DNA from: an uncultured Legionella sp.
GTDB taxonomy: Bacteria > Pseudomonadota > Gammaproteobacteria > Legionellales > Legionellaceae
NCBI GenBank assembly: GCA_964605275.1
Contig: CAZSAO010000003.1
Location: 27,248-91,247 of the forward strand
Direction: 5' to 3'
Length of the DNA stretch: 64,000 bases
The notes below the pieces were generated by a model. It saw only the letters and a list, made by a program, of their open reading frames with translations, did no database searches and was not told where the DNA came from. Both the position numbers and the translations under genes were made by a program. Below, in pieces: positions 3,605 to 13,216 of this stretch. Position 1 is the first letter of the stretch. Each line of letters begins with the position of its first letter.

Positions 3605-4669
3605 ATGTTATTGCACTTCAGACGCATCAAAAATATACTAACAGAACACTGTAATAAAATTGAGCAAACATACGCTATGGCTCTTGTTTTATTGGTATGC
3701 AATGTATTAGCCGCGCTAAAAAATTTATATACCTCATGGACACTTAGTACCTTTTTTTTATTCATTAATGTATTAGGTGTTAGCTGTCTGCTAATCGGTT
3801 TAAAGAAACAAAAGAATACACAACTAACAACTCATGCTCTTAATTGCCTGTGTATGATCTTTATCGCTCTGATAAATATAAATCTAAACAGTAATGTACC
3901 TTCACTAATTAATTGGTTTTACCTCATACCGATATTAGCGACCCTCACCTTAAATCGTAGCGGTTTATTTCTTTATGGCACGTTAGCTGGGGGGATGATG
4001 TTACTATGTTTAATAACCGTTAATCCTGTTGAAGGCGTTATATCATTCTCAACGTGTAGCAACTCTTTGCTTGTTTATACAGGAATATATATCTTACTTT
4101 ATGCTTTGTTAGTCGAAAATAAGCGCCACGAGACAAAATTAAAGAAACAAAATATTCGTCTTAACGCAGATAAAGAAAAATTTCACTACTTATCTCATCA
4201 CGATTCGTTAACTAATTTACCTAATCGTAGTTATTTTCTCGAACATCTCGATCTATTATTGCAAAAAAGTATCGCCGAACAACAGGTCCTCACCCTTTAT
4301 TTTATGGATTTAAATGGCTTTAAAAAAATAAATGATCAATACGGCCATGAGATCGGCGATACACTTTTATTAGAAGTAGGCAAACGTTTGCGTTCATGCT
4401 TTCGAGAAGATGATTTTATCGCCCGACTCGCCGGCGATGAGTTCACCGCCCTTATCACTCATCAAGCCCAAGACAACCTACCTAACCTGTTGATTACCCG
4501 AATTAATAAAGAGTTTTTACAACCCTTTTTAATAAAAAACACCCGCTTAAATTGCTCTATTAGCATTGGCATAGCAACCTATCCTACCGATGCCAAGCAA
4601 GCGGAACAACTATTGGCTATGGCTGATCGCTCGATGTATCGACGAAAGAAAATAAATGCTTTTTATTAA
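3605..4669 (+). CDS. Membrane-anchored GGDEF-domain protein (diguanylate cyclase family) with an AGDEF active-site variant
   Basis: The N-terminal ~170 aa are hydrophobic with multiple TM helices. The C-terminal GGDEF domain carries the motifs DSLTNLPNR, DLNGFKKINDQYGH, REDD-FIARL-AGDEF and SIGIA. The start could be 3605 or the Met at 3677. Confidence 0.85.
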   Translation: MLLHFRRIKNILTEHCNKIEQTYAMALVLLVCNVLAALKNLYTSWTLSTFFLFINVLGVSCLLIGLKKQKNTQLTTHALNCLCMIFIALININLNSNVPSLINWFYLIPILATLTLNRSGLFLYGTLAGGMMLLCLITVNPVEGVISFSTCSNSLLVYTGIYILLYALLVENKRHETKLKKQNIRLNADKEKFHYLSHHDSLTNLPNRSYFLEHLDLLLQKSIAEQQVLTLYFMDLNGFKKINDQYGHEIGDTLLLEVGKRLRSCFREDDFIARLAGDEFTALITHQAQDNLPNLLITRINKEFLQPFLIKNTRLNCSISIGIATYPTDAKQAEQLLAMADRSMYRRKKINAFY

Positions 4670-4771: not shown

Positions 4772-5380
4772 ACGTCATCCCGAACGCAGTGAGGGATCTC
4801 CTTGTGGTGGCTGATATTTTTTGAACCGCCAAAATTTTTAATCAATTCTCAAAACCATAATATCGCTATCTCATAATTAATTTTAGCAATGCAAGGGCCG
4901 AGCACATAACCAGTATTCGTGGATTTATTCACACTACATGAAAAGGCCTAAAATTCCATTCCAGTGATTTTTTCTGATATTATGCTCATCCCTGCAGGAT
5001 ATTGTCAGGGTATAAATAGTCCAACACAACAAGGAAGCGCTCATGCATAGAGAGTCGTACGTTTACCTATTGGCCAATAAATACAATAATGTATTGTATA
5101 CCGGTGTCACCTCTGATTTGATACGCCGTGTTTATGAACACAAGAACAGTCTAGTAAAAGGCTTTACACAAAAATATAATGTGAATCGCTTGGTATATTA
5201 TGAGGCATGTGCAAATATCGTTGTAGCTATTGAAAGAGAAAAACAGGTAAAAGCATGGTCGCGAAAAAAGAAAGAGGCTCTGATTAATACATTAAATCCT
5301 GATTGGGAGGATTTATATCGATTGATATGTTAAAGACCGTGCTGCAGCAAGGAGATTCCTCGCTGCGCTCGGAATGACGT
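4772..5380. mobile_element. GIY-YIG gene cassette bracketed by 33-nt inverted hairpin repeats (candidate selfish or REPtron-like unit)
   Basis: 4772-4804 (acgtcatcccgaacgcagtgagggatctccttg) matches the reverse complement of 5348-5380 (acgtcattccgagcgcagcgaggaatctccttg) at 29 of 33 positions. The four differences form two compensatory base pairs in the predicted hairpin. Confidence 0.5.
5043..5333 (+). CDS. GIY-YIG nuclease superfamily protein (small UPF0213/YhbQ-like)
   Basis: The 96-aa product has YVYLL...LYTGVT..L..R..EH, which are the GIY/YIG, Arg and Glu core motifs, followed by a KKKE..LI tail typical of stand-alone GIY-YIG proteins. Confidence 0.85.
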   Translation: MHRESYVYLLANKYNNVLYTGVTSDLIRRVYEHKNSLVKGFTQKYNVNRLVYYEACANIVVAIEREKQVKAWSRKKKEALINTLNPDWEDLYRLIC

Positions 5381-5481: not shown

Positions 5482-5757
5482 ACGTCATCCTGAACGCAGG
5501 GCTCTCCTAAATCAGGCTCAGTACCCAGGGCAAGAGCATGAGTGGTTGAACATGTTCCTAATTGCCTACGTACCAGGCTTTATGCGCGGTATCCAACGAT
5601 CTTTCACTATTGCAAGATCCTATGGACACGCCACAGAAAATAGAAATTGGACTTAAACCATATAAAAAATTTGAGTGCTTTAATTTAAATCACTCATGCG
5701 TTTGCCCTGGCTCAGTACCCTGTCTAGAGGAGACTTCACTACGTTCAGTGATGACGT
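5482..5757. mobile_element. MITE-like non-autonomous derivative of the GIY-YIG-flanking repeat
   Basis: 5482-5545 and the reverse complement of 5691-5757 form ~65-nt imperfect terminal inverted repeats. They start with the same acgtcatc...gaacg.ag motif as the 4772/5380 repeats. There is no credible gene inside. Confidence 0.5.
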
Positions 5758-5883
5758 ATTTGGCAAAATTTATGCAAAATAATGTTCGACTATATTTTTT
5801 TATTTAAAAGAGTATTTATTATTTTTTAATAGGTTGTAATCTGAAATTGTGTGTTTTTTAAATAAAGCTTCGGTACATTTCAT

Positions 5884-6600
5884 TTACTCACCATTTTTAT
5901 TCTCAGAACTACTTAAAATCTGCTGCAATGCCATTGCCAGATCTTTTTTTATAGTAAGCTCAGGCTTATTCAACACTAAAGATTGATTAATTTCAATTTC
6001 CAACCCACTATAATCTGCTGCTGCATAGCGTGCACGCATTGCCGTTGTCACGCCATCGCTAATTCCTTTATACGGGTAGTTCATGCGAATTCGATACTGA
6101 TTTGTTTCTTTTTGAATGTGCTCTTTCCATAGGCGTGCATATTCCTTTTCTAATGCACGTTTAGGATCATAAAGAAAGCTCAGCTCTGCGTTGCGTATTT
6201 GATTATTAAATATCGGGGTAAATGAATGTATTGAACAATGCAATACCCGATCGCCTGCGGCTATGATGTCATCTATTTGCTGAATAATTTTTTGGCGATA
6301 AGGTAGATAATAAGTAGCGATCACTTCTTCTTTTTCTACAGGTGATAAACTTTCACTAATGGATGAAAAACAATGACCATGTAATGAACGATTATAATCT
6401 ATTAATAAGCGTGAGGTTGATGCCTGAATTAATACACAAGAAAACACTTGCTGCATATATTGGGCGGCCTCTAAGGCGCCAAAATCCACTCCTTGATGAG
6501 TATTCAAACGCTCAGTAAAAGGTTTAAATAAGGCGCTATACGCATCAGGAATAAAATTCGTCGCATGTTCACAACTCAATAACAAAATTGTTTTATTCAT
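5884..6600 (-). CDS. N-formylglutamate amidohydrolase-family (FGase) hydrolase
   Basis: The LLSCEHATNFIP N-terminal motif and the length (238 aa) are typical of the FGase/HutG-like family. The start overlaps the stop of the upstream GCS2 gene (ATGA). Confidence 0.8.
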   Translation of the reverse strand: MNKTILLLSCEHATNFIPDAYSALFKPFTERLNTHQGVDFGALEAAQYMQQVFSCVLIQASTSRLLIDYNRSLHGHCFSSISESLSPVEKEEVIATYYLPYRQKIIQQIDDIIAAGDRVLHCSIHSFTPIFNNQIRNAELSFLYDPKRALEKEYARLWKEHIQKETNQYRIRMNYPYKGISDGVTTAMRARYAAADYSGLEIEINQSLVLNKPELTIKKDLAMALQQILSSSENKNGE

Positions 6601-7817
6601 AATTGCTCATTAGTTAATAGACATGTGGGTAGATAGGAGTAGACCCTTTTTAGGGTGCTCTTATCCGGATTAGGGCCGGTCAAATTAAGAATACGCTCGC
6701 TTAAATTTCCTTGCGAAAGAATATACTCTAAAGCCTTTTGCTCTTGATTGTTTAGTGAGGTACTTATTTCTTCAATTAAAAAGGCCCAAACAGCACGCAT
6801 TGTTTTTAAACGCTTAGGAACTTGCCATTGTAAAAATAAACTCCCATCCGCAATAGCTGTATTCAGGCCTGATTTAATCGCTGCATCATAAGCGTGCTTC
6901 AATGGCATGATGGAGGCAGGATGAGCTAAAAAATAATCCGAAGTGTCACACCATTTTTTTAAAATCGCACTAATGGCTTTGGCAATAGCAATATCAGCGT
7001 TAACACATTCTTGTGTATCCACAATGCGAATTTCAATCGCTTTGAGATCAAACTTAGGAATACAACCGCGCGAATTGAGCCACGGCTCTTGTAATAAACC
7101 CTCTTTATCAAAGGGACGAATTTCTTGATACATCGGTGTTAAAATGTGTTGTTGATATTCTTCTTCCGAGCCGATGAATGGTGGAATAATATCACCGCTA
7201 ATACTTCTAATACGTTGTTGATTTTGCTCATAATAATAAAGGCGTGAGTCTAATAATCCGGTGAATTTACCATCCAAAATAGGACTACTTGCCGCAAGAG
7301 CAGGCAATAAAGGCAATATTAACCTTATCGCATTGTGTAATAATTTAAACTCTTCATCATTGGCATAAGGTAAATTAACATGCATGCTTTGCAAATTAGA
7401 CCAACCATGACCTTTACAGTTAAAAATTTTATTATATTGCTGATATATTTTATTATTGCCATTATCCCACAGGTAGGTTTCAAGATGTGGATTCATCCAT
7501 GGATGAGCAGCTGAAGGCATTAAAGATAAATGATGTTGGGCTAATAAAGGCTGTATTGCATGAATAGCCTCTTGAAAATGTTCTGCAATCGGCTCATCCA
7601 ATCCTTTGGGCCCATTGTTTTTAAACTCCACTACATGTTTGACCAGCTCATTACTCAACATAATATTGCCAAGCACTGCTTCGTTTATATTCTCGCCACT
7701 TAGCGCATGCAACAGCACATCGGTTTTGGGTTGAATATTAAGCAACTCCTTATCCACCAACATATATTCGATTTCAATACCAACGGCCGAAAAAAGTGAT
7801 AAATTAGACATAGCCAT
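6597..7817 (-). CDS. Carboxylate-amine ligase, glutamate-cysteine ligase family 2 (GCS2/YbdK-like)
   Basis: VGIEIEYMLVD, SNELVKHVVEF and WSNLQSMHVNLP are characteristic GCS2 blocks. The product is 406 aa. Confidence 0.85.
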   Translation of the reverse strand: MAMSNLSLFSAVGIEIEYMLVDKELLNIQPKTDVLLHALSGENINEAVLGNIMLSNELVKHVVEFKNNGPKGLDEPIAEHFQEAIHAIQPLLAQHHLSLMPSAAHPWMNPHLETYLWDNGNNKIYQQYNKIFNCKGHGWSNLQSMHVNLPYANDEEFKLLHNAIRLILPLLPALAASSPILDGKFTGLLDSRLYYYEQNQQRIRSISGDIIPPFIGSEEEYQQHILTPMYQEIRPFDKEGLLQEPWLNSRGCIPKFDLKAIEIRIVDTQECVNADIAIAKAISAILKKWCDTSDYFLAHPASIMPLKHAYDAAIKSGLNTAIADGSLFLQWQVPKRLKTMRAVWAFLIEEISTSLNNQEQKALEYILSQGNLSERILNLTGPNPDKSTLKRVYSYLPTCLLTNEQL

Positions 7818-9255
7818 GCTTCCTGCGTATACGCGTTAAAAATACATTCATGATTTGATAATATAAATTGTCACCTAAAATCTTGTCCTCAACTCCATGA
7901 TCAATATTAGGATTATCATTTATTTCAATCACATAATACATATTATCCTTACCCTTGATATCCACACCATACAATCCATCACCAATTAATTTAGTAGATT
8001 TTAACGCCAGCTTAATCACCTCTTCAGGCACCTCACTTAAAGGAATTGCGTCTGATTTTCCTTCTTGCAGGTCTTTACCGCCATTCCAGTCATAAATTTG
8101 CCAATGATCTTTAGCCATAAAATAACGACAGGCAAATAAAGGTTTATTATCGAGAATACCAATACGCCAATCAAATTCGGTGGGAATAAAGGGCTGTGCC
8201 AACACTAAATCGGATGTTTTAAAAAATTCACGTAAATTTTTTGTTAATGCCTGCGCGTCTTCAATTTTAATAACGCCCAAAGAAAAGGCACTATCGGGTT
8301 GTTTTAAAACGCAAGGTAATTGCACAGCAGGCGGCGTTGTATCATATTTATTAAAGAAAATGGTCGGTGGTGTTTTTATTTGATGCGTATTTAATAGTTC
8401 TGCTAAATACACTTTATTAGTGCACTTAATTATTGACAGATGATCGTCAATAACTACCAGATTTTCTTGTGATGCCTGCCGTGCTAAACGATAGGTATAA
8501 TGATTAACCGCAGTTGTCGCGCGAATGAATAAGGCATCATATTCCCCTATGCCTTTATGTTCATTTTTATCAATAAAATCAACGTTTATTCCCAACTCTT
8601 CTCCGGCTGCAACAAAAAAGTCTAACGCTTTTTTATTCGACGGAGAATGCGACTCCTCCGGATCAACCAAAATTGCTAAATCATGATAGCGCTGTTTTTT
8701 TCGTGATTGATATACTCGTTTTTTAGAAAGATAATTTTGTGCCGCTTGATACATAAAATCCATATGATGTTCAGGAAGATCATTGACAGATAAAGGAATA
8801 ATCTCTTTAATACTCCACTCTCTTTTTAACTCTAAAGAAAAACGAATTAATGGCAGAGGAAATAAATTGTGTAATTGTTTTGCTAAATTGGTGTATTTTT
8901 TCGCCATATTTTGACCAAAATATAAGCTTAAAACAAAATGTTCCGCTTTAATGTCATGAAGACTACGTTGTATTTCATCATGAATGTCTTGCGAGATTAA
9001 ATTCATGCCGATATTTAATACATCTTGAATTCCATGTACCGAAGGAAAGGCTTTATGTTCTCGGGCTTGAGCGAGTAATGAGACATAATAACCAATACTT
9101 TGATACGCATAAGCATTACACAAATTAATGACACGAAACGATTTATTATAGTGATATTCATCGGCACTAATATAAGTAGAGCTTGATATAATAGGGGCAA
9201 AACATTCCAAAAAAGCCCAGCTGGTTGGTTCATCAGTTATTATTATTGTTTGCAT
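7804..9255 (-). CDS. RimK-type ATP-grasp ligase with ~190-aa N-terminal RLAN-like domain
   Basis: The C-terminal ~290 aa have RimK/GshB-like ATP-grasp blocks (VLKQPDSAFSLGV, DWRIGILD, GVDIK...YVIEINDNP). The N-terminal region (NLCNAYAYQSIGYYVSLLAQAREHKAFPS) resembles the RimK-like ATP-grasp N-terminal domain as I remember it. Confidence 0.85.
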   Translation of the reverse strand: MQTIIITDEPTSWAFLECFAPIISSSTYISADEYHYNKSFRVINLCNAYAYQSIGYYVSLLAQAREHKAFPSVHGIQDVLNIGMNLISQDIHDEIQRSLHDIKAEHFVLSLYFGQNMAKKYTNLAKQLHNLFPLPLIRFSLELKREWSIKEIIPLSVNDLPEHHMDFMYQAAQNYLSKKRVYQSRKKQRYHDLAILVDPEESHSPSNKKALDFFVAAGEELGINVDFIDKNEHKGIGEYDALFIRATTAVNHYTYRLARQASQENLVVIDDHLSIIKCTNKVYLAELLNTHQIKTPPTIFFNKYDTTPPAVQLPCVLKQPDSAFSLGVIKIEDAQALTKNLREFFKTSDLVLAQPFIPTEFDWRIGILDNKPLFACRYFMAKDHWQIYDWNGGKDLQEGKSDAIPLSEVPEEVIKLALKSTKLIGDGLYGVDIKGKDNMYYVIEINDNPNIDHGVEDKILGDNLYYQIMNVFLTRIRRKHGYV

Positions 9256-9968
9256 TATCCCTCTTTAGGCTCAATGATGAGTAAGTTCGCATCGTACGTT
9301 AACACCCCTAACATAATGGAGTTGATTAAACGATTTACACTTACTTTGTAATAATTCGTTCCAAATAAAGGATTAGTATGATGAGGGTCGGCCACCACCA
9401 CTAATCTTTTTTTCACATCATAACCACACAAAACAACAAAATGACCACATGGCGTGCCACGTACATCATCATAAATCGATTGTCCATCTAAAGTAAAATG
9501 CTCCCTGGCACTGCGATAAAGATAAGTGGCACTAAGCGCCGTTAAAATAGGAACGCCCTGAGCAAAATACTTTTTAATTAAATCCACGTTTAAAGAATGA
9601 AAGCAAATTATTCCGCCTTTATGCAAATAATCTAAATAAGCTAAACTTTCTTTAACGATAAAGGGATCTTTTTTATAATGCATTTGCTCTGTTAATTTGC
9701 GAATTAAAAAATCATTATCCCCTTGAGCATGCGCAAACCAAGTGGGATCAAATAACGTTAAATTATAAACATATATTTTCGTCTTAAATCCTTGTGTTAA
9801 TGCATGAGAACCTAACATCGGACTAAGCGTGCCGCCCGAAATAGACCGCTCTATTTGTGGAATGAGCTCTTCCAATGTAATATGTAAACCATAATATTGA
9901 TATATTGCGTGTAAACACGTAGGACCACAGGTTTCATCATCGGGTTGTGCTTGAATGACAATTTCCAT
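9255..9968 (-). CDS. Papain-fold cysteine peptidase (C39-like), first gene of the amidoligase operon
   Basis: Candidate catalytic residues occur in papain order: Q7...C14 (QPDDETCGPTCLH), H (TPCGHFVVLCGYD) and D (VVVADP). The stop shares one nt with the start of the ATP-grasp gene. Confidence 0.65.
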   Translation of the reverse strand: MEIVIQAQPDDETCGPTCLHAIYQYYGLHITLEELIPQIERSISGGTLSPMLGSHALTQGFKTKIYVYNLTLFDPTWFAHAQGDNDFLIRKLTEQMHYKKDPFIVKESLAYLDYLHKGGIICFHSLNVDLIKKYFAQGVPILTALSATYLYRSAREHFTLDGQSIYDDVRGTPCGHFVVLCGYDVKKRLVVVADPHHTNPLFGTNYYKVSVNRLINSIMLGVLTYDANLLIIEPKEG

Positions 9969-10081
9969 ATGGCATTACCCCATGATATTTAAATATATAT
10001 TTAAAACTAGGCCCCTGCGTCTTACTTGTCAAATAACATCTATACTTGAATACATATCTCAACGTGTACAAGGAAGCCTGC

Positions 10082-10933
10082 ATGTGTCGCCTAATTGCGT
10101 ATATAGGAGATAGGCTATTACTAGCTGATGCGTTAATAAAACCGGACAATTCTTTAGTAAAACAAAGTTTAAGTGCCAAAGAAACAACCTCACTGACTAA
10201 TGGGGATGGTTTTGGGTTAGGTTGGTATGTGCCAGAAATTAGCACCGAACCGGCACTGTTTTCATCCATTTTTCCCGCATGGAATGATGAAAATTTATTA
10301 CATTTAGCAAATAAAACGAAAGCACCACTTTTTTTTGCCCATGTTCGAGCCGCCAGTATTGGTGGTGTAAATACTTATAATTGCCACCCCTTTATCTATC
10401 AAAATTGGATGTTCATGCATAATGGACAAATAAATAACTTCTCCGCAATAAAGCGCGCACTACGGCATTTATTAGATGATGATATTTATAATTGGATTCG
10501 AGGTGAAACGGATTCGGAACATTTATTTGCGCTGTTTTTACAATTAGCTAAAGGAAAAGACTTGAGTCAACTTACACACATTGCACAACTGTTACAAACC
10601 ACATTCAAGACCATACAACAGCTGCTGCACCAAACAGGAGTCGACACTACATCTTATTATAATATTTGTATGACAGACGGCCAACGTATTATTGCTAGCC
10701 GTTATTGTACCGATAGTCACATAGCGCCCGAATCATTACATTTTTTAGAGGGTAGCTATTTTTGGTCTAAAAATAATGGTTTAGAAACAAACCCACAAAA
10801 ACCACAACATTGTGTTCTTATCGCATCAGAGCAGTTAACCGATTTTAATGACCAATGGCAGGTGGTACCCGGCAATCATTTTCTGTTAGTAGATAGTGAT
10901 TACTCCGTTAGTATTAAGCCGATAGTGCTTTAA
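10082..10933 (+). CDS. Class II (Ntn-type) glutamine amidotransferase, YafJ/EgtC-like
   Basis: The Met-Cys start (MCRLIAYIG) is needed for the N-terminal nucleophile Cys, so 10082 is preferred over the ORF-track start 10046. Further motifs are NGDGFGLGWY and HVRAAS...NCHPF. Confidence 0.85.
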   Translation: MCRLIAYIGDRLLLADALIKPDNSLVKQSLSAKETTSLTNGDGFGLGWYVPEISTEPALFSSIFPAWNDENLLHLANKTKAPLFFAHVRAASIGGVNTYNCHPFIYQNWMFMHNGQINNFSAIKRALRHLLDDDIYNWIRGETDSEHLFALFLQLAKGKDLSQLTHIAQLLQTTFKTIQQLLHQTGVDTTSYYNICMTDGQRIIASRYCTDSHIAPESLHFLEGSYFWSKNNGLETNPQKPQHCVLIASEQLTDFNDQWQVVPGNHFLLVDSDYSVSIKPIVL

Positions 10934-12678
10934 TACTTAACCCCATACCCAACCTCTTTTTTGGCAATAACTGCGGCCATGCCTATATTTCTCGGATCCG
11001 CTGTAGCGGTAAGTAATTGCGGATTTTTATCCCAAGTAATAACTTGCATGTTGCCATAATATTGTAATAAAGGCATTAAATGATGGCCCATACTTTTTAA
11101 ACGATCTTGAATCGTAGTATTAAAAGTATCCGGTTCAAATTGAATCACATCCGGTAAATACTGATGATGAAAACGCATTGCTGAAGCCATAGGAATAGCA
11201 CCAGAGCCATCATAAAATAACAAGGATGCTAACAATACCATGGTTGGAATACGACTTCCGCCAGGAGTACCCAAAATAGCTACGCGTTCTGGCAACTCAA
11301 GAAAGGTAGGCGTCATACTGGATATGGGCCGCTTACCAGGAGCAATGGCATTGGCTTCACTGCCCACTATGCCAAACACATTAGGGGAACCTACAGCAGT
11401 GGCAAAATCATCCATTTCATCATTAAGTAACACCCCAGTTCCTTTGGCAATCACGCTAGAACCAAAGATATAATTCACCGTCAACGTAGCCGCTACGCGA
11501 TTACCCGCCTCATCGATAATCGAAAAGTGCGTGGTATTGTGATGATTTTCTTTAATAGGCTGGCCTTGTAATACATTACTATCAATGGCTTTATTGGGGC
11601 TAACTAAAGAAAATAATCGTTTCGCATTTTGTGCCGAAGTTAATTTATCAACCGGTACCGATATAAAATCTGGATCGCCTAAAAACTCATCTCGTTGCCA
11701 ATAGGCAAGTCGCATGGCCTCCACAACATAATGTATCCATGCTGCTTTTTCTAGAGTATTTAGTGGCACATAAGATAAAATATTAAGCATCGTTAATAAA
11801 CTAATCCCGCCCGCGGATGGCGGTGGAGCAGTAATAATAAGCATATTATGATATGCGCCCACCAAAGGCTCACGTACTGCTATTTGATATTGAGCTAAAT
11901 CAGCCAGGCTCCAATGACCGCCGGCGTTATTAACCCCCTCGACTAATCGTTTGGCCACCTCGCCTTGATAAAATCCTTTATGTCCTTGTTGCGCCAAAAT
12001 ACGCAACGTGTTAGCCAAATCTTTTTGCACTAACCGCTCACCACGTTGATACGGTTTTCCGTCATGCAAAAAAATGGCCGCAGTCGCAGGATATTTTTTA
12101 ATCCATTCCAACCTATCGCCCATCATGAGGAAATAATTAAACTGGTGATCAACCACAAACCCTTCTTCGGCTAATTTAATCGCCGGAGCTAACGACTGTG
12201 CTAAAGGTAGGCGGCCATAATGTTGTGCAATAAAGGCAAATGCGGCAGGTTGCCCGGGAATAGCCGCGGCTAAACCACCATTCAAAGATAATCCAGGAAT
12301 CACCCTACCTTTGGCATCAAGAAACATATTTTTACTAGCGGCTAATGGCGCTTTTTCCCTGCTATCAACAAAAACATTTTTGTGCGCTTTTTCATCATGC
12401 AATAACCAAAAACCACCGCCGCCAATGCTGGTATGATAAGGCTCGACTACGGCTAAAGCAGCAGCTACCGCAATTGCGGCATCAAAGGCATTGCCACCTT
12501 GAGCTAAAATCTCTAAACCGGCATTGGTTGCCAAAGGATGAGCACTCGCAACAGCATGCCCGGGAGGATTATTAGGTAGAGCAAAAGAATAACTAAAGCA
12601 AGAATAAAACGTTAAAGACAGTATTGAAGTGGAAATAAAATATTTAAATTTATGCATTTTTTCTCTTCTGCAATTCAT
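10930..12678 (-). CDS. ggt: Gamma-glutamyltranspeptidase (periplasmic)
   Basis: It has a signal peptide, the autoprocessing/nucleophile region NTTHFSIID and PGGSRIP near the C-terminus. An alternative start at 12657 gives MHKFKYF. The 5' end overlaps the coaD 3' end. Confidence 0.93.
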
Positions 12679-13132
12679 TGACTACCGCCACGGGCACAAA
12701 TTGAGACACATCACCATCATAAGCCGCAATTTCTCTAACTAATGTTGAAGAAAGAAACATTAAATGTTCCGCGGGCGTTAAAAATAATGTTTCAATCTCT
12801 TTTACCAACTTACGATTCATGCCGGCTAATTGAAATTCATATTCAAAATCGGATACCGCGCGTAATCCTCTAATAATAATGTGTGCATTTTGCTGTTGCG
12901 CAAACTCGATTAGTAAGGTTTCGAAACCCACCACGTGCACATTGGATAAATGCGTTAATGATTCCTCAATTAACCGAATGCGGGTAGCTAAATCAAAAAA
13001 AGGATGCTTCACTTTGTTATTCGCAACAGCAACAATTAACTGCGGAAAAATACGTGCCGCACGAGTAATTAAATCAATATGACCATTAGTCACAGGATCA
13101 AACGTACCAGGATAAATTGCTTTTTTTTTCAT
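12650..13132 (-). CDS. coaD: Phosphopantetheine adenylyltransferase
   Basis: [21 protein letters not shown] aligns from residue 1 with E. coli CoaD, so the Met at 13132 is preferred to the upstream Met at 13153. Confidence 0.93.
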
Positions 13133-13216
13133 TTTTATTCTGCTCGATTGCATATGGCCACAGTCTAGCGTATTGTGAAATGAAAAACTATAACTAACAC
13201 ATGGATAAGGCCTGCA

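Follow-up and report, generated by a model that had tools for sequence, protein, structure and literature searches.

Four genes on the minus strand of the window (the whole stretch of 64,000 nucleotides that was analysed), here called A, B, C and D, form one translationally coupled operon at positions 5884-9968. Together they are a self-contained, horizontally mobile cassette that occurs in many phyla. The operon structure, the family assignments, the intact active sites, the co-conservation of the genes and the fusion of B with C are demonstrated. The chances are about even that the cassette encodes a cytoplasmic pathway that assembles a small glutamate-containing peptide independently of the ribosome and trims it. 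Literature searches found no characterised product of the cassette and no experimental work on it, as the initial annotation had supposed. The features discussed are as follows.

9255-9968, minus strand: gene A, 237 aa, papain-fold (C39-like) cysteine peptidase
7804-9255, minus strand: gene B, 483 aa, RLAN domain plus RimK-clade ATP-grasp ligase
8746-9180, minus strand: RLAN domain of B, Pfam match at aa 26-170, domain at about aa 1-178
7816-8685, minus strand: complete ATP-grasp ligase module of B, about aa 191-480, RimK/LysX/ArgX/Ddl type
6597-7817, minus strand: gene C, 406 aa, GCS2-family (glutamine-synthetase-fold) carboxylate-amine ligase
5884-6600, minus strand: gene D, 238 aa, FGase-family (N-formylglutamate amidohydrolase-like) amidohydrolase
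9969-10081: intergenic region between A and E, 113 bp
10082-10933 (open reading frame 10046/10082-10933), plus strand: gene E, 283 aa, Ntn-type class-II glutamine amidotransferase/amidohydrolase (GATase_4, EgtC-like)
10930-12678, minus strand: gamma-glutamyltranspeptidase, convergent with E, matched by Pfam and NCBIfam models

The positions of A to E in the open reading frame list of the window agree with those given in the initial annotation, and the sequence bears out the four-gene operon and the overlaps that it described. Adjacent genes overlap at all junctions. A and B have one nucleotide in common at 9255, in the motif TAATG, and C and D overlap in an ATGA at 6597-6600. The B/C overlap is 14 nt when C starts at the ATG at 7817 and 8 nt when it starts at the next ATG, at 7811. 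The latter has the better spacing from a Shine-Dalgarno AGGAAG and agrees with the 8 nt overlap called in L. pneumophila; judged from the sequence, C may start at 7811 rather than at 7817. It was correctly noted that the cassette in the window includes neither a transporter nor a regulator. The promoter of the cassette presumably sits in 9969-10081. A consensus scan detected no promoter-like site inside 9969-10081 and no excess of such sites over the region as a whole (23 found, 28.6 expected). All five proposed family assignments hold in profile searches with the Pfam gathering scores as threshold, A to E all lying above them.

Gene order was counted at 64 genome loci with sufficient flanking DNA from more than 10 phyla. 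The order A-B-C-D, on the same strand, is present at 35 of the 64 loci and A-B-C at 12, and D was found at 37 of 66 testable loci. The recurrence of one gene order at 35 plus 12 loci in many phyla places the arrangement far beyond chance, and the suggested co-conservation is thus confirmed for the four genes. The lineages include Legionellales, Planctomycetota, Bacteroidota, Fibrobacterota, Verrucomicrobiota, Acidobacteriota, Nitrospinota, Gemmatimonadota, Spirochaetota and Myxococcota, and the genes that flank the cassette are unrelated between loci. The RLAN, ATP-grasp and GCS2 parts also occur fused in one polypeptide (P0243, 975 aa; P0253, 984 aa). A second context exists in which B is accompanied by a GNAT acetyltransferase in place of A, C and D; the GNAT is fused or adjacent to B at 11 of 16 B-only loci. 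Either the GCS2 enzyme or the GNAT could supply an N-acylated carboxylate substrate. In two Phycisphaerales loci an MFS transporter gene is translationally coupled 3' of C, but most cassette loci lack a transporter, which counts against a small-peptide product. Inspection of the sequences of A to D revealed no evident signal peptide.

Gene A is matched by Pfam Peptidase_C39_2 (40.8 bits) and Peptidase_C39 (38.6 bits), both above the gathering scores, and gives no match to the Pfam phytochelatin family. The putative catalytic residues Gln8, Cys14, His176 and Asp194 are kept in at least 90% of 60 cross-phylum homologues. The papain fold proposed for A is borne out by an AlphaFold model (pLDDT 85.8), which has a helical insert at about residues 80-135. 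In Foldseek searches of the PDB the model matched the C39 domains of PCAT1, ComA and LahT (E 3e-5 to 6e-4), phytochelatin synthase Alr0975 (E 1.2e-4) and the pseudomurein endoisopeptidase PeiR (TMq 0.55). Phytochelatin synthase, captured in its structure as a glutathione acyl-enzyme, is about as good a match as the C39 domains, which favours the small-peptide reading. The N-terminal sequence of A is closest to double-glycine leader peptidases, whose substrates are ribosomal peptides, and this speaks against that reading.

The cassette could alternatively mature a RiPP, with A as the leader peptidase, B acting on a ribosomal precursor in the manner of graspetide or pheganomycin ligases, and C and D tailoring the product further. 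C39 peptidases are the family most often found with graspetide ATP-grasp loci (PMC8939145), and A carries the C39 N-terminal motif around its catalytic Cys. However, about 60 loci showed no conserved small ORF beside the cassette, evidence against a neighbouring gene for a RiPP precursor or a tag; in the window there is only the 113 bp gap upstream and nothing conserved downstream. An ABC exporter is also absent, A stands alone as a cytoplasmic protein and carries a large helical insert, and B has RimK, LysX and Ddl, not macrocyclases, as its structural neighbours. RiPP maturation is very improbable.

Gene B is matched by Pfam RLAN with 146.2 bits (cutoff 25), RimK with 38.3 bits and ATP-grasp_3 with 30.9 bits. 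The RLAN domain is predicted to fold separately as an alpha/beta domain, with a low-confidence linker (residues 179-188) after it. It has 38 invariant columns in 16 sequences from several lineages, and a profile search found no solved relative for it, the best match (eS12, E 0.43) not being significant. The ATP-grasp module matched Ddl, ArgX, LysX and RimK in Foldseek (TMt 0.72-0.80, E about 1e-15), and 47 sequences show no variation in its Lys, Asp, Glu and Asn columns of the ATP-grasp type. The closest NCBIfam models are the RimK family, the glutamate-ligase equivalogs MptN and CofF, and LysX, which favours the small-peptide reading. The Legionella and Planctomycetota versions of B share about 45% identity, and roughly 100 columns are invariant. 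This high conservation, together with an RLAN domain for which no fold relative was identified, would also fit the recognition of a conserved macromolecule and to that extent counts against a small peptide.

Recognition of this kind belongs to a reading in which B would extend the C-terminus of a protein encoded at another locus by one or more glutamates, as RimK does with ribosomal protein S6, C would glutamylate a protein amine, and A and D would process or de-conjugate the product. B lies in the RimK clade by sequence and by structure, including RimK complexed with RpsF (5zk6), and the extra RLAN domain of this very highly conserved protein could be a target-recognition module. C has the same fold as the pupylation ligase PafA, and the C39 family, to which A is similar, cuts peptides after Gly-Gly. 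Some B homologues are fused to a GNAT that is closest to RimI, a ribosomal-protein acetyltransferase (P0173, 90.5 bits, cutoff 86.4), but this similarity is weak evidence, as small GNATs commonly match the RimI model. B itself scores 56.3 bits against rimK_fam, under the cutoff of 143.4, and 20.5 bits against the S6-ligase equivalog. The MFS and GATase_4 companions at some loci point to small molecules instead. The initial annotation had offered a protein C-terminal tag as a possible product; this gained no positive support. No lineage has a conserved small gene or a candidate target beside the cassette, and protein or peptide tagging is considered unlikely.

Gene C is matched by Pfam GCS2 with 87.5 bits and scores under all NCBIfam YbdK and GshA cutoffs; its similarity to YbdK structures is distant (profile match to 1r8g, E 5e-4; 1tt4, E 0.003). 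Residues E15, E17, E57, E64, H105, R250, E262 and R264 are invariant across phyla. Gene D is matched by Pfam FGase with 83.9 bits and by PDB 2odf (Atu2144) with E 7e-18, matches no curated NCBIfam equivalog, and has conserved His, Asp and Glu columns at E11, H12, H35, D39, H121, H125, E201 and E203. Cross-phylum alignments show that catalytic residues are kept in all four proteins. B, C and D all fall under every curated equivalog or subfamily cutoff of NCBIfam, so that specificity is not transferable from characterised enzymes, and this too counts against the small-peptide reading.

The presence of two hydrolases inside a biosynthetic operon is unusual and likewise counts against that reading. 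Two hydrolases for two ligases would suit a pathway in which C glutamylates an amine with ATP, as in the PuuA/PuuD and Ipu routes, the hydrolases process and release it, and the cassette consumes a compound for catabolism or detoxification. Some genomes have further amidohydrolases, namely GATase_4 (the window, L032 and L037), an M20 peptidase (L083) and gamma-glutamyltranspeptidase (the window), and in P. aeruginosa about 5 kb separate a B homologue from ggt and a Glu/Asp ABC transporter. However, the conserved core has no oxidoreductase or other transforming enzyme that would act between ligation and hydrolysis, the cassette has no regulator or uptake system, and the known catabolic routes through gamma-glutamylation have no place for a second ATP-dependent ligase such as B. 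Such a function is improbable.

The initial annotation had also treated the divergent gene E as an integral, co-regulated member of a five-gene system. E is a real gene, matched by Pfam GATase_4 with 63.5 bits and by NCBIfam EgtC with 188.6 bits (under the cutoff of 218.65). Its Met-Cys start at 10082 holds; the ATG-TGT has an AGGAAG 6 nt upstream, and the alignments with PDB 3mdn (E 1e-42) and EgtC 4zfk (E 1e-9) both start at residue 1. E adjoins A in the window at a distance of 113 bp, and GATase_4 genes are found beside the cassette more commonly than expected for a low-copy family, in two distant phyla (L032, exactly in the position of D; L037, convergent after D). However, these are the only two instances among 80 other loci. 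The divergent arrangement is not kept in other Legionella: E is missing beside the cassette of L. pneumophila, and the closest relative (76% identity) has an M20 peptidase in its place. Conversely, the cassette is absent from 16 of 16 loci that hold relatives of E, and a 68%-identical orthologue is followed by a Glu_synthase-domain gene. E is thus a neighbour and not a core member, the five-gene version is improbable, and the count of three hydrolases or transferases and the shared control region apply to this genome only.

The gamma-glutamyltranspeptidase gene, which had gone unmentioned, overlaps the stop codon of E by 4 nt and is matched by Pfam G_glu_transpept (511 bits) and NCBIfam g_glut_trans (455.6 bits, cutoff 357.85). 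It fits the glutamyl theme but has no conserved link to the cassette (0 of 82 cassette loci).

Linked ATP-grasp and COOH-NH2 ligases typically carry out successive peptide ligations (PMC4431377). In the small-peptide pathway that we favour, C would join a carboxylate to an amine with ATP to give an N-acylated amino acid, the carboxylate most likely being the gamma-carboxyl of glutamate by analogy with the GCS2 family. B would then use ATP to add an amino acid, most likely glutamate, to the free carboxylate of this intermediate, as glutathione synthetase and the RimK-family N-acetylaspartylglutamate synthetases do, and its RLAN domain may bind the substrate or a partner. The type reaction of the FGase family is cleavage of an acyl-NH-Glu bond, and D would take off the terminal glutamate at a bond of the type predicted for B. 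With its Cys-His-Asp triad intact, A may hydrolyse or transpeptidate the product via an acyl-enzyme in the manner of phytochelatin synthase or BtrH. In the window, E and the gamma-glutamyltranspeptidase would cleave gamma-glutamyl bonds, the type predicted for C, as occasional, non-obligatory companions. The substrates, the order of the steps and the small-molecule nature of the product are what we infer.

Several known systems use related enzymes. The glutathione/phytochelatin pathway has the same folds, with a GCS2-type ligase, an ATP-grasp ligase that acts on an N-acyl amino acid and a papain-fold enzyme, and it includes a gamma-glutamyltranspeptidase, as does the window, although there the link is not conserved. 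However, C is under all GshA cutoffs, B scores 20 bits against the glutathione synthetase model (cutoff 408), A lacks a phytochelatin family match, and the FGase has no counterpart in that pathway. In ergothioneine (EgtA/EgtC) and butirosin (BtrJ/BtrH/BtrG) biosynthesis a gamma-glutamyl group is put on by a GCS2 or ATP-grasp ligase and taken off again at a later stage by a dedicated amidohydrolase, and BtrH is a papain-like acyltransferase. E is EgtC-like, yet it is under the EgtC cutoff and without a conserved link to the cassette, and EgtB, EgtD, carrier protein and aminoglycoside genes are all absent. The N-acetylaspartylglutamate synthetases RIMKLA/B with the GNAT NAT8L, and the NAGGN synthetase Ngg (GNAT plus ATP-grasp), combine a GNAT with a RimK-type ligase to make an N-acetyl dipeptide. 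The GNAT-RLAN-ATP-grasp fusions of the B family parallel these systems, whereas the cassette of the window has GCS2 in place of a GNAT. Identity of the fusions with Ngg was rejected, as TIGR03103 matches the GNAT part only (27-33 bits, cutoff 569).

RimK, which with RimA/RimB polyglutamylates S6, is an ATP-grasp ligase of the same clade as B, and a partner protease trims the product in this system (PMC11957791). B differs from RimK in its extra 180-aa RLAN domain and in failing the rimK_fam cutoff, and its partners are papain-like and FGase enzymes, whereas those of RimK are a retropepsin and a c-di-GMP phosphodiesterase. The survey of Iyer, Abhiman, Burroughs and Aravind from 2009 (Mol Biosyst 5:1636) is said to be the source of the Pfam RLAN domain and reportedly described operons of RLAN-bearing RimK-like ATP-grasp ligases with a COOH-NH2 (GCS2) ligase or a GNAT and with peptidases, their function being predicted only; it may also show this exact A-B-C-D order, and in Legionella. 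A later account credits Iyer et al. 2009 with multiple instances in which ATP-grasp ligases share an operon with COOH-NH2 ligases or GNATs (PMC4431377), which agrees with the initial annotation, where surveys of amidoligases were said to have noted comparable neighbourhoods. The cassette belongs to this type of linked-amidoligase neighbourhood, which comparative genomics had noted before.

The cassette is a minus-strand operon of four genes (A to D). A fifth gene, E, diverges from A across a 113-bp gap, and a gamma-glutamyltranspeptidase (GGT) gene lies beyond it:

9255-9968, minus strand: gene A, papain/C39-like Cys peptidase, 237 aa (ORF list)
7804-9255, minus strand: gene B, RLAN plus ATP-grasp ligase, 483 aa (ORF list)
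6597-7817, minus strand: gene C, GCS2 carboxylate-amine ligase, 406 aa (ORF list)
5884-6600, minus strand: gene D, FGase-family amidohydrolase, 238 aa (ORF list)
ATG-TGT at 10082 to ORF end 10933, plus strand: gene E, class-II amidotransferase, with AGGAAG upstream of the start
10930-12678, minus strand: GGT gene, convergent with E and sharing 4 nt with the E stop codon

The ORF coordinates of the initial annotation were reproduced exactly by the ORF list, and its family calls for A to E were upheld, each protein scoring above the Pfam gathering score (A C39, B RLAN and RimK, C GCS2, D FGase, E GATase_4). When the minus strand is read directly, A and B have one base in common in a TAATG overlap, GGATAATGCAA, and C and D meet in an ATGA overlap, TTATGAATAAA. 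The B/C overlap is 14 nt if C starts at the ATG at 7817 and 8 nt if it starts at the next ATG, 7811; the AGGAAG motif lies 1 nt from the former and 7 nt from the latter. The start of C may be the second of these, 7811, which has the more usual AGGAAG spacing and agrees with the 8-nt B/C overlap of L. pneumophila. Consensus scans of the region gave no excess of promoter-like sites (23, with 28.6 expected from shuffles) or of terminator-like sites (9, with 7.0 expected). None of the proteins A to E matched a PADLOC defence model at E<=0.01.

A pattern scan with one genome per species yielded 80 loci from Legionellales, other Gammaproteobacteria, Planctomycetota, Bacteroidota, Fibrobacterota, Verrucomicrobiota, Acidobacteriota, Nitrospinota, Gemmatimonadota, Leptospiraceae, Desulfobacterota, Myxococcota and others, with B proteins 42-66% identical to window B. 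ORFs were called in each locus and searched with iterated HMMs of the window proteins, and architectures were counted in the 64 loci with sufficient flanking DNA. A-B-C-D in the same order and strand was found in 35 of the 64 and A-B-C in 12, so that the co-conservation and synteny of the minus-strand genes are borne out across many phyla; the remainder had B-C (3/64), B alone (12/64) or another architecture (2/64). The core of the cassette comprises three or four genes rather than five. Five further contigs with precomputed gene calls carry the same cassette amid unrelated flanks, and it therefore moves as a unit. Joint action of B and C is independently supported by P0243 and P0253, representative proteins of 975-984 aa in which RLAN-ATP-grasp and GCS2 are joined in one chain.

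A divergent FGase was looked for in the loci with A-B-C only and none was found, the genes downstream being unrelated; in two Phycisphaerales loci an MFS gene (L035 5587-7023, L075 6451-7842) overlaps the GCS2 stop in the FGase position and is translationally coupled to C. In all-against-all clustering, recurrent extra neighbours were limited to GNAT, a small number of MFS genes and generic families, and the largest clusters consisted of shadow ORFs that overlap the conserved genes from within. In the loci with gene C, the 700 bp flanking the cassette on each side contain no conserved small ORF, nor is any apparent in the window. This excludes a RiPP precursor or tag gene beside the cassette, a result that concerns co-located genes only. 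A graspetide or other RiPP ATP-grasp cluster needs a co-located precursor gene; none was found and this assignment was rejected. A DNA search of the plasmid collection gave no match.

By sequence and by predicted structure, B has an RLAN plus RimK-like ATP-grasp architecture with a complete ATP-grasp module. RLAN (PF14401) scores 146.2 bits over aa 26-170 (cutoff 25) and RimK 38.3 bits over aa 280-468 (cutoff 21); among solved structures RimK is found by sequence at 1e-7. The model of B (pLDDT 83.1) has an alpha/beta RLAN module at about residues 1-178, which a disordered linker joins to a complete ATP-grasp; Foldseek aligns the ATP-grasp with Ddl, ArgX, LysX and RimK (TMt 0.72-0.80). B is not assigned to the TIGR00768 RimK family of alpha-L-glutamate ligases (rimK_fam 56.3 bits, cutoff 143.4) or to the S6-glutamate ligases (equivalog PRK10446, 20.5 bits, cutoff 331). 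The RLAN profile found nothing significant among PDB sequences. Its sole match was the eukaryotic ribosomal protein eS12, not significant at E 0.43, in a region equivalent to B aa 76-150 (window ~8806-9030), which is a lead for fold comparison only. B homologues number in the thousands, and the full scan of cluster representatives gave 375 clusters at E<=1e-30. The best 120 matches, where the source is named, are from Legionella (L. pneumophila included), Tatlockia or unclassified bacteria at 64-77% identity.

Gene C belongs to GCS2 (PF04107; 87.5 bits, cutoff 21), and the active-site columns E15, E17, E57, E64, H105, R250, E262 and R264 show no variation among 22-63 cross-phylum sequences. 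It matches YbdK structures at 3e-3 by sequence and 5e-4 with a profile. Neither the YbdK subfamily (TIGR02050, 63.6 bits vs 176.4; PRK13515, 68.4 vs 371) nor GshA (every equivalog <=50 bits, cutoffs >249) could be assigned. Gene D belongs to FGase (PF05013; 83.9 bits, cutoff 28.9) at the family level and matches PDB 2odf (Atu2144) at E 7e-18; for the HutG function, which takes a curated equivalog match, no NCBIfam model of the fold matched at E<=0.01. The relatives of A to E among solved structures are distant. B, C and D all fall below every equivalog and subfamily cutoff of the NCBI curated models, as E does for EgtC, and are therefore distinct, unnamed subfamilies.

Gene A matches Peptidase_C39_2 and Peptidase_C39 in Pfam and C39 domains among solved structures by sequence (5e-3). 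Its AlphaFold model (pLDDT 85.8) is a papain fold, for which Foldseek gives comparable scores to three groups: the double-glycine C39 domains of PCAT1, ComA and LahT; the phytochelatin synthase Alr0975, including its glutathione acyl-enzyme form; and the pseudomurein endoisopeptidase PeiR, with the top TM-score of 0.55. Across 60 homologues that represent many phyla, Gln8, Cys14, His176 and Asp194 are each retained in at least 90%. The PA2778-family equivalog scores 19.4 bits (cutoff 150).

Gene E is a genuine Ntn-type gene. The Met-Cys start described in the initial annotation is present as ATG-TGT at 10082, alignments to 3mdn and EgtC begin at residue 1, and E matches PDB 3mdn at 1e-42. As EgtC it was rejected: it is EgtC-like and below the cutoff of TIGR03442 (188.6 bits, cutoff 218.65). 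Its proposed membership of the system was not supported, as the linkage to the cassette is not conserved in L. pneumophila, in the closest relative or in other loci. In L. pneumophila the position of E is taken by BON-domain and other genes. In the closest relative (L083), where B is 76% identical, a divergent Peptidase_M20 gene at 5735-6856 (minus strand), a different amidohydrolase, stands in the place that E has in the window. An E-like GATase_4 lies beside the cassette elsewhere only in L032, directly after C at the place of D, and in L037, convergent and after D. These three adjacencies are independent and more than expected by chance for a low-copy family; with linkage not conserved, we therefore read E as an occasional accessory outside the core. 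Perhaps it is interchangeable in function with D. Neither the cassette nor GGT was found in 16 metagenome loci with E relatives. In one contig (L089 2564-5040, plus strand) a 68%-identical E orthologue is followed after 18 bp by a gene for a 534-aa protein with a Glu_synthase (FMN) domain, a kind of gene found nowhere in the whole 64-kb window.

The GGT gene, which was absent from the initial annotation, fits the glutamyl theme, and among cassette loci it is found in the window only. Its longest ORF overlaps the upstream ORF 12650-13153, presumably coaD to judge from its sequence, by 29 nt, so translation probably begins at a later Met (MHKF...). On the D side, a gene at 3605-4669 on the plus strand encodes a GGDEF diguanylate cyclase whose membrane N-terminal region matches MASE6 weakly, and a GGDEF gene is the distal D-side neighbour in L. 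pneumophila too (L001 17443-17455); synteny is thus partly kept on the D side and absent on the A side. A gene for a 96-aa stand-alone GIY-YIG nuclease domain (5043-5333, plus strand) lies between this GGDEF gene and D, from which about 550 bp of apparently non-coding DNA separates it.

B has a second context. In 11 of 16 B-only loci a GNAT acetyltransferase is fused to B or immediately adjoins it, and one such locus is from Legionellaceae (L006), where it holds a second, paralogous B. The GNAT domain is N-terminal to RLAN-ATP-grasp in many representative proteins and C-terminal in P0202. Assignment of these fusions to the NAGGN synthetase Ngg was ruled out, the GNAT part being RimI-like. P. 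aeruginosa pZYPA1927 (L104, 1-7470) carries a stand-alone 529-aa B homologue with 41% identity, which bears the annotation RimK family ligase and which we take to be PA1345. Its distance from ggt and a glutamate/aspartate ABC transporter is about 5 kb, which gives the B family a second and independent proximity to GGT. PA1345 has a predicted CpxR box (PMC12802237) and is still hypothetical in papers from 2024-2025.

What the analysis shows is the operon, the protein folds, active sites that are intact, and co-conservation. These can be read together as a scheme in which a small peptide with Glu is made and trimmed, and for which the substrates and the order of steps are those that we infer. 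To our knowledge, every characterised member of the B clade (RimK, MptN, CofF, LysX, ArgX) ligates a carboxylate to the amine of an acidic amino acid; the RIMKLA/B N-acetylaspartylglutamate synthetases act similarly, and glutathione synthetase does so more distantly. GCS2 and GNAT are both able to N-acylate an amino acid, with gamma-glutamyl and acetyl respectively. Either partner would yield an N-blocked carboxylate, the type of substrate that B-clade ligases extend, and the alternative GNAT partner suggests N-acylated amino acids as B substrates. The type reaction of FGase is cleavage of an acyl-NH-Glu bond, and D would cleave this bond, which is the one predicted for B. EgtC-like enzymes and GGT cleave gamma-glutamyl bonds, and E and GGT would cleave the bond predicted for C. 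Phytochelatin synthase and BtrH show that papain-fold enzymes can transfer acyl groups, and A could likewise hydrolyse or transfer one.

Protein tagging is retained as the main rival to this small-peptide scheme. B is very strongly conserved and the RLAN domain is uncharacterised, both of which keep it in contention. A pupylation-like or RimK-like protein conjugation, with the target or tag encoded elsewhere, is considered unlikely. Here A would expose a C-terminus, B, guided by RLAN, would add glutamate to it, C, with its PafA-type fold, would ligate the side-chain carboxylate of that glutamate to a protein amine, and D would reverse the mark. If true, bacteria would have a post-translational modification that is new, widely distributed and found in all Legionella.

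Why should this cassette be of interest? It is genus-wide in Legionella, L. pneumophila included, and occurs in at least 10 phyla with the main ligase at about 45% identity. Two ATP-dependent ligases, fused in some organisms, and two matching hydrolases make a compact, tractable target. The outcome could be a novel metabolite that contains glutamate, perhaps a peptide like glutathione, or else a novel modification of proteins, and the present analysis narrows the search to a core of three or four genes with no precursor gene attached.

No characterisation of the cassette was found in the literature searched, where the whole word 'RLAN' gave unrelated papers only; a paper on the Klebsiella ATP-grasp CfmP concerns another, TupA-like family. 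A is a putative C39-type peptidase, with the papain fold and the Gln/Cys/His/Asp residues of the double-glycine family. C39 leader peptidases are fused to or paired with ABC exporters and act on Gly-Gly leaders; no ABC transporter is fused to or adjoins A in the window or the compared loci, and no leader-bearing precursor lies near it. The likeness of A to phytochelatin synthase is structural only (E 1.2e-4, TMq 0.42, 9-12% identity), and A was rejected as a member of that family, with no Pfam phytochelatin match at E<=0.01. EgtC occurs in an ergothioneine gene context, whereas E has no EgtA, EgtB or EgtD and its neighbours are A and GGT. The window cassette is the Legionella member of a computationally recognised, experimentally orphan kind and will be no surprise to specialists. 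Pfam includes an RLAN family, whose name refers to this architecture. A passage of PMC4431377 describes multiple instances, from Iyer et al. 2009, of operonic links between an ATP-grasp and a COOH-NH2 ligase or GNAT, and states that enzymes linked in this way usually carry out successive ligations.
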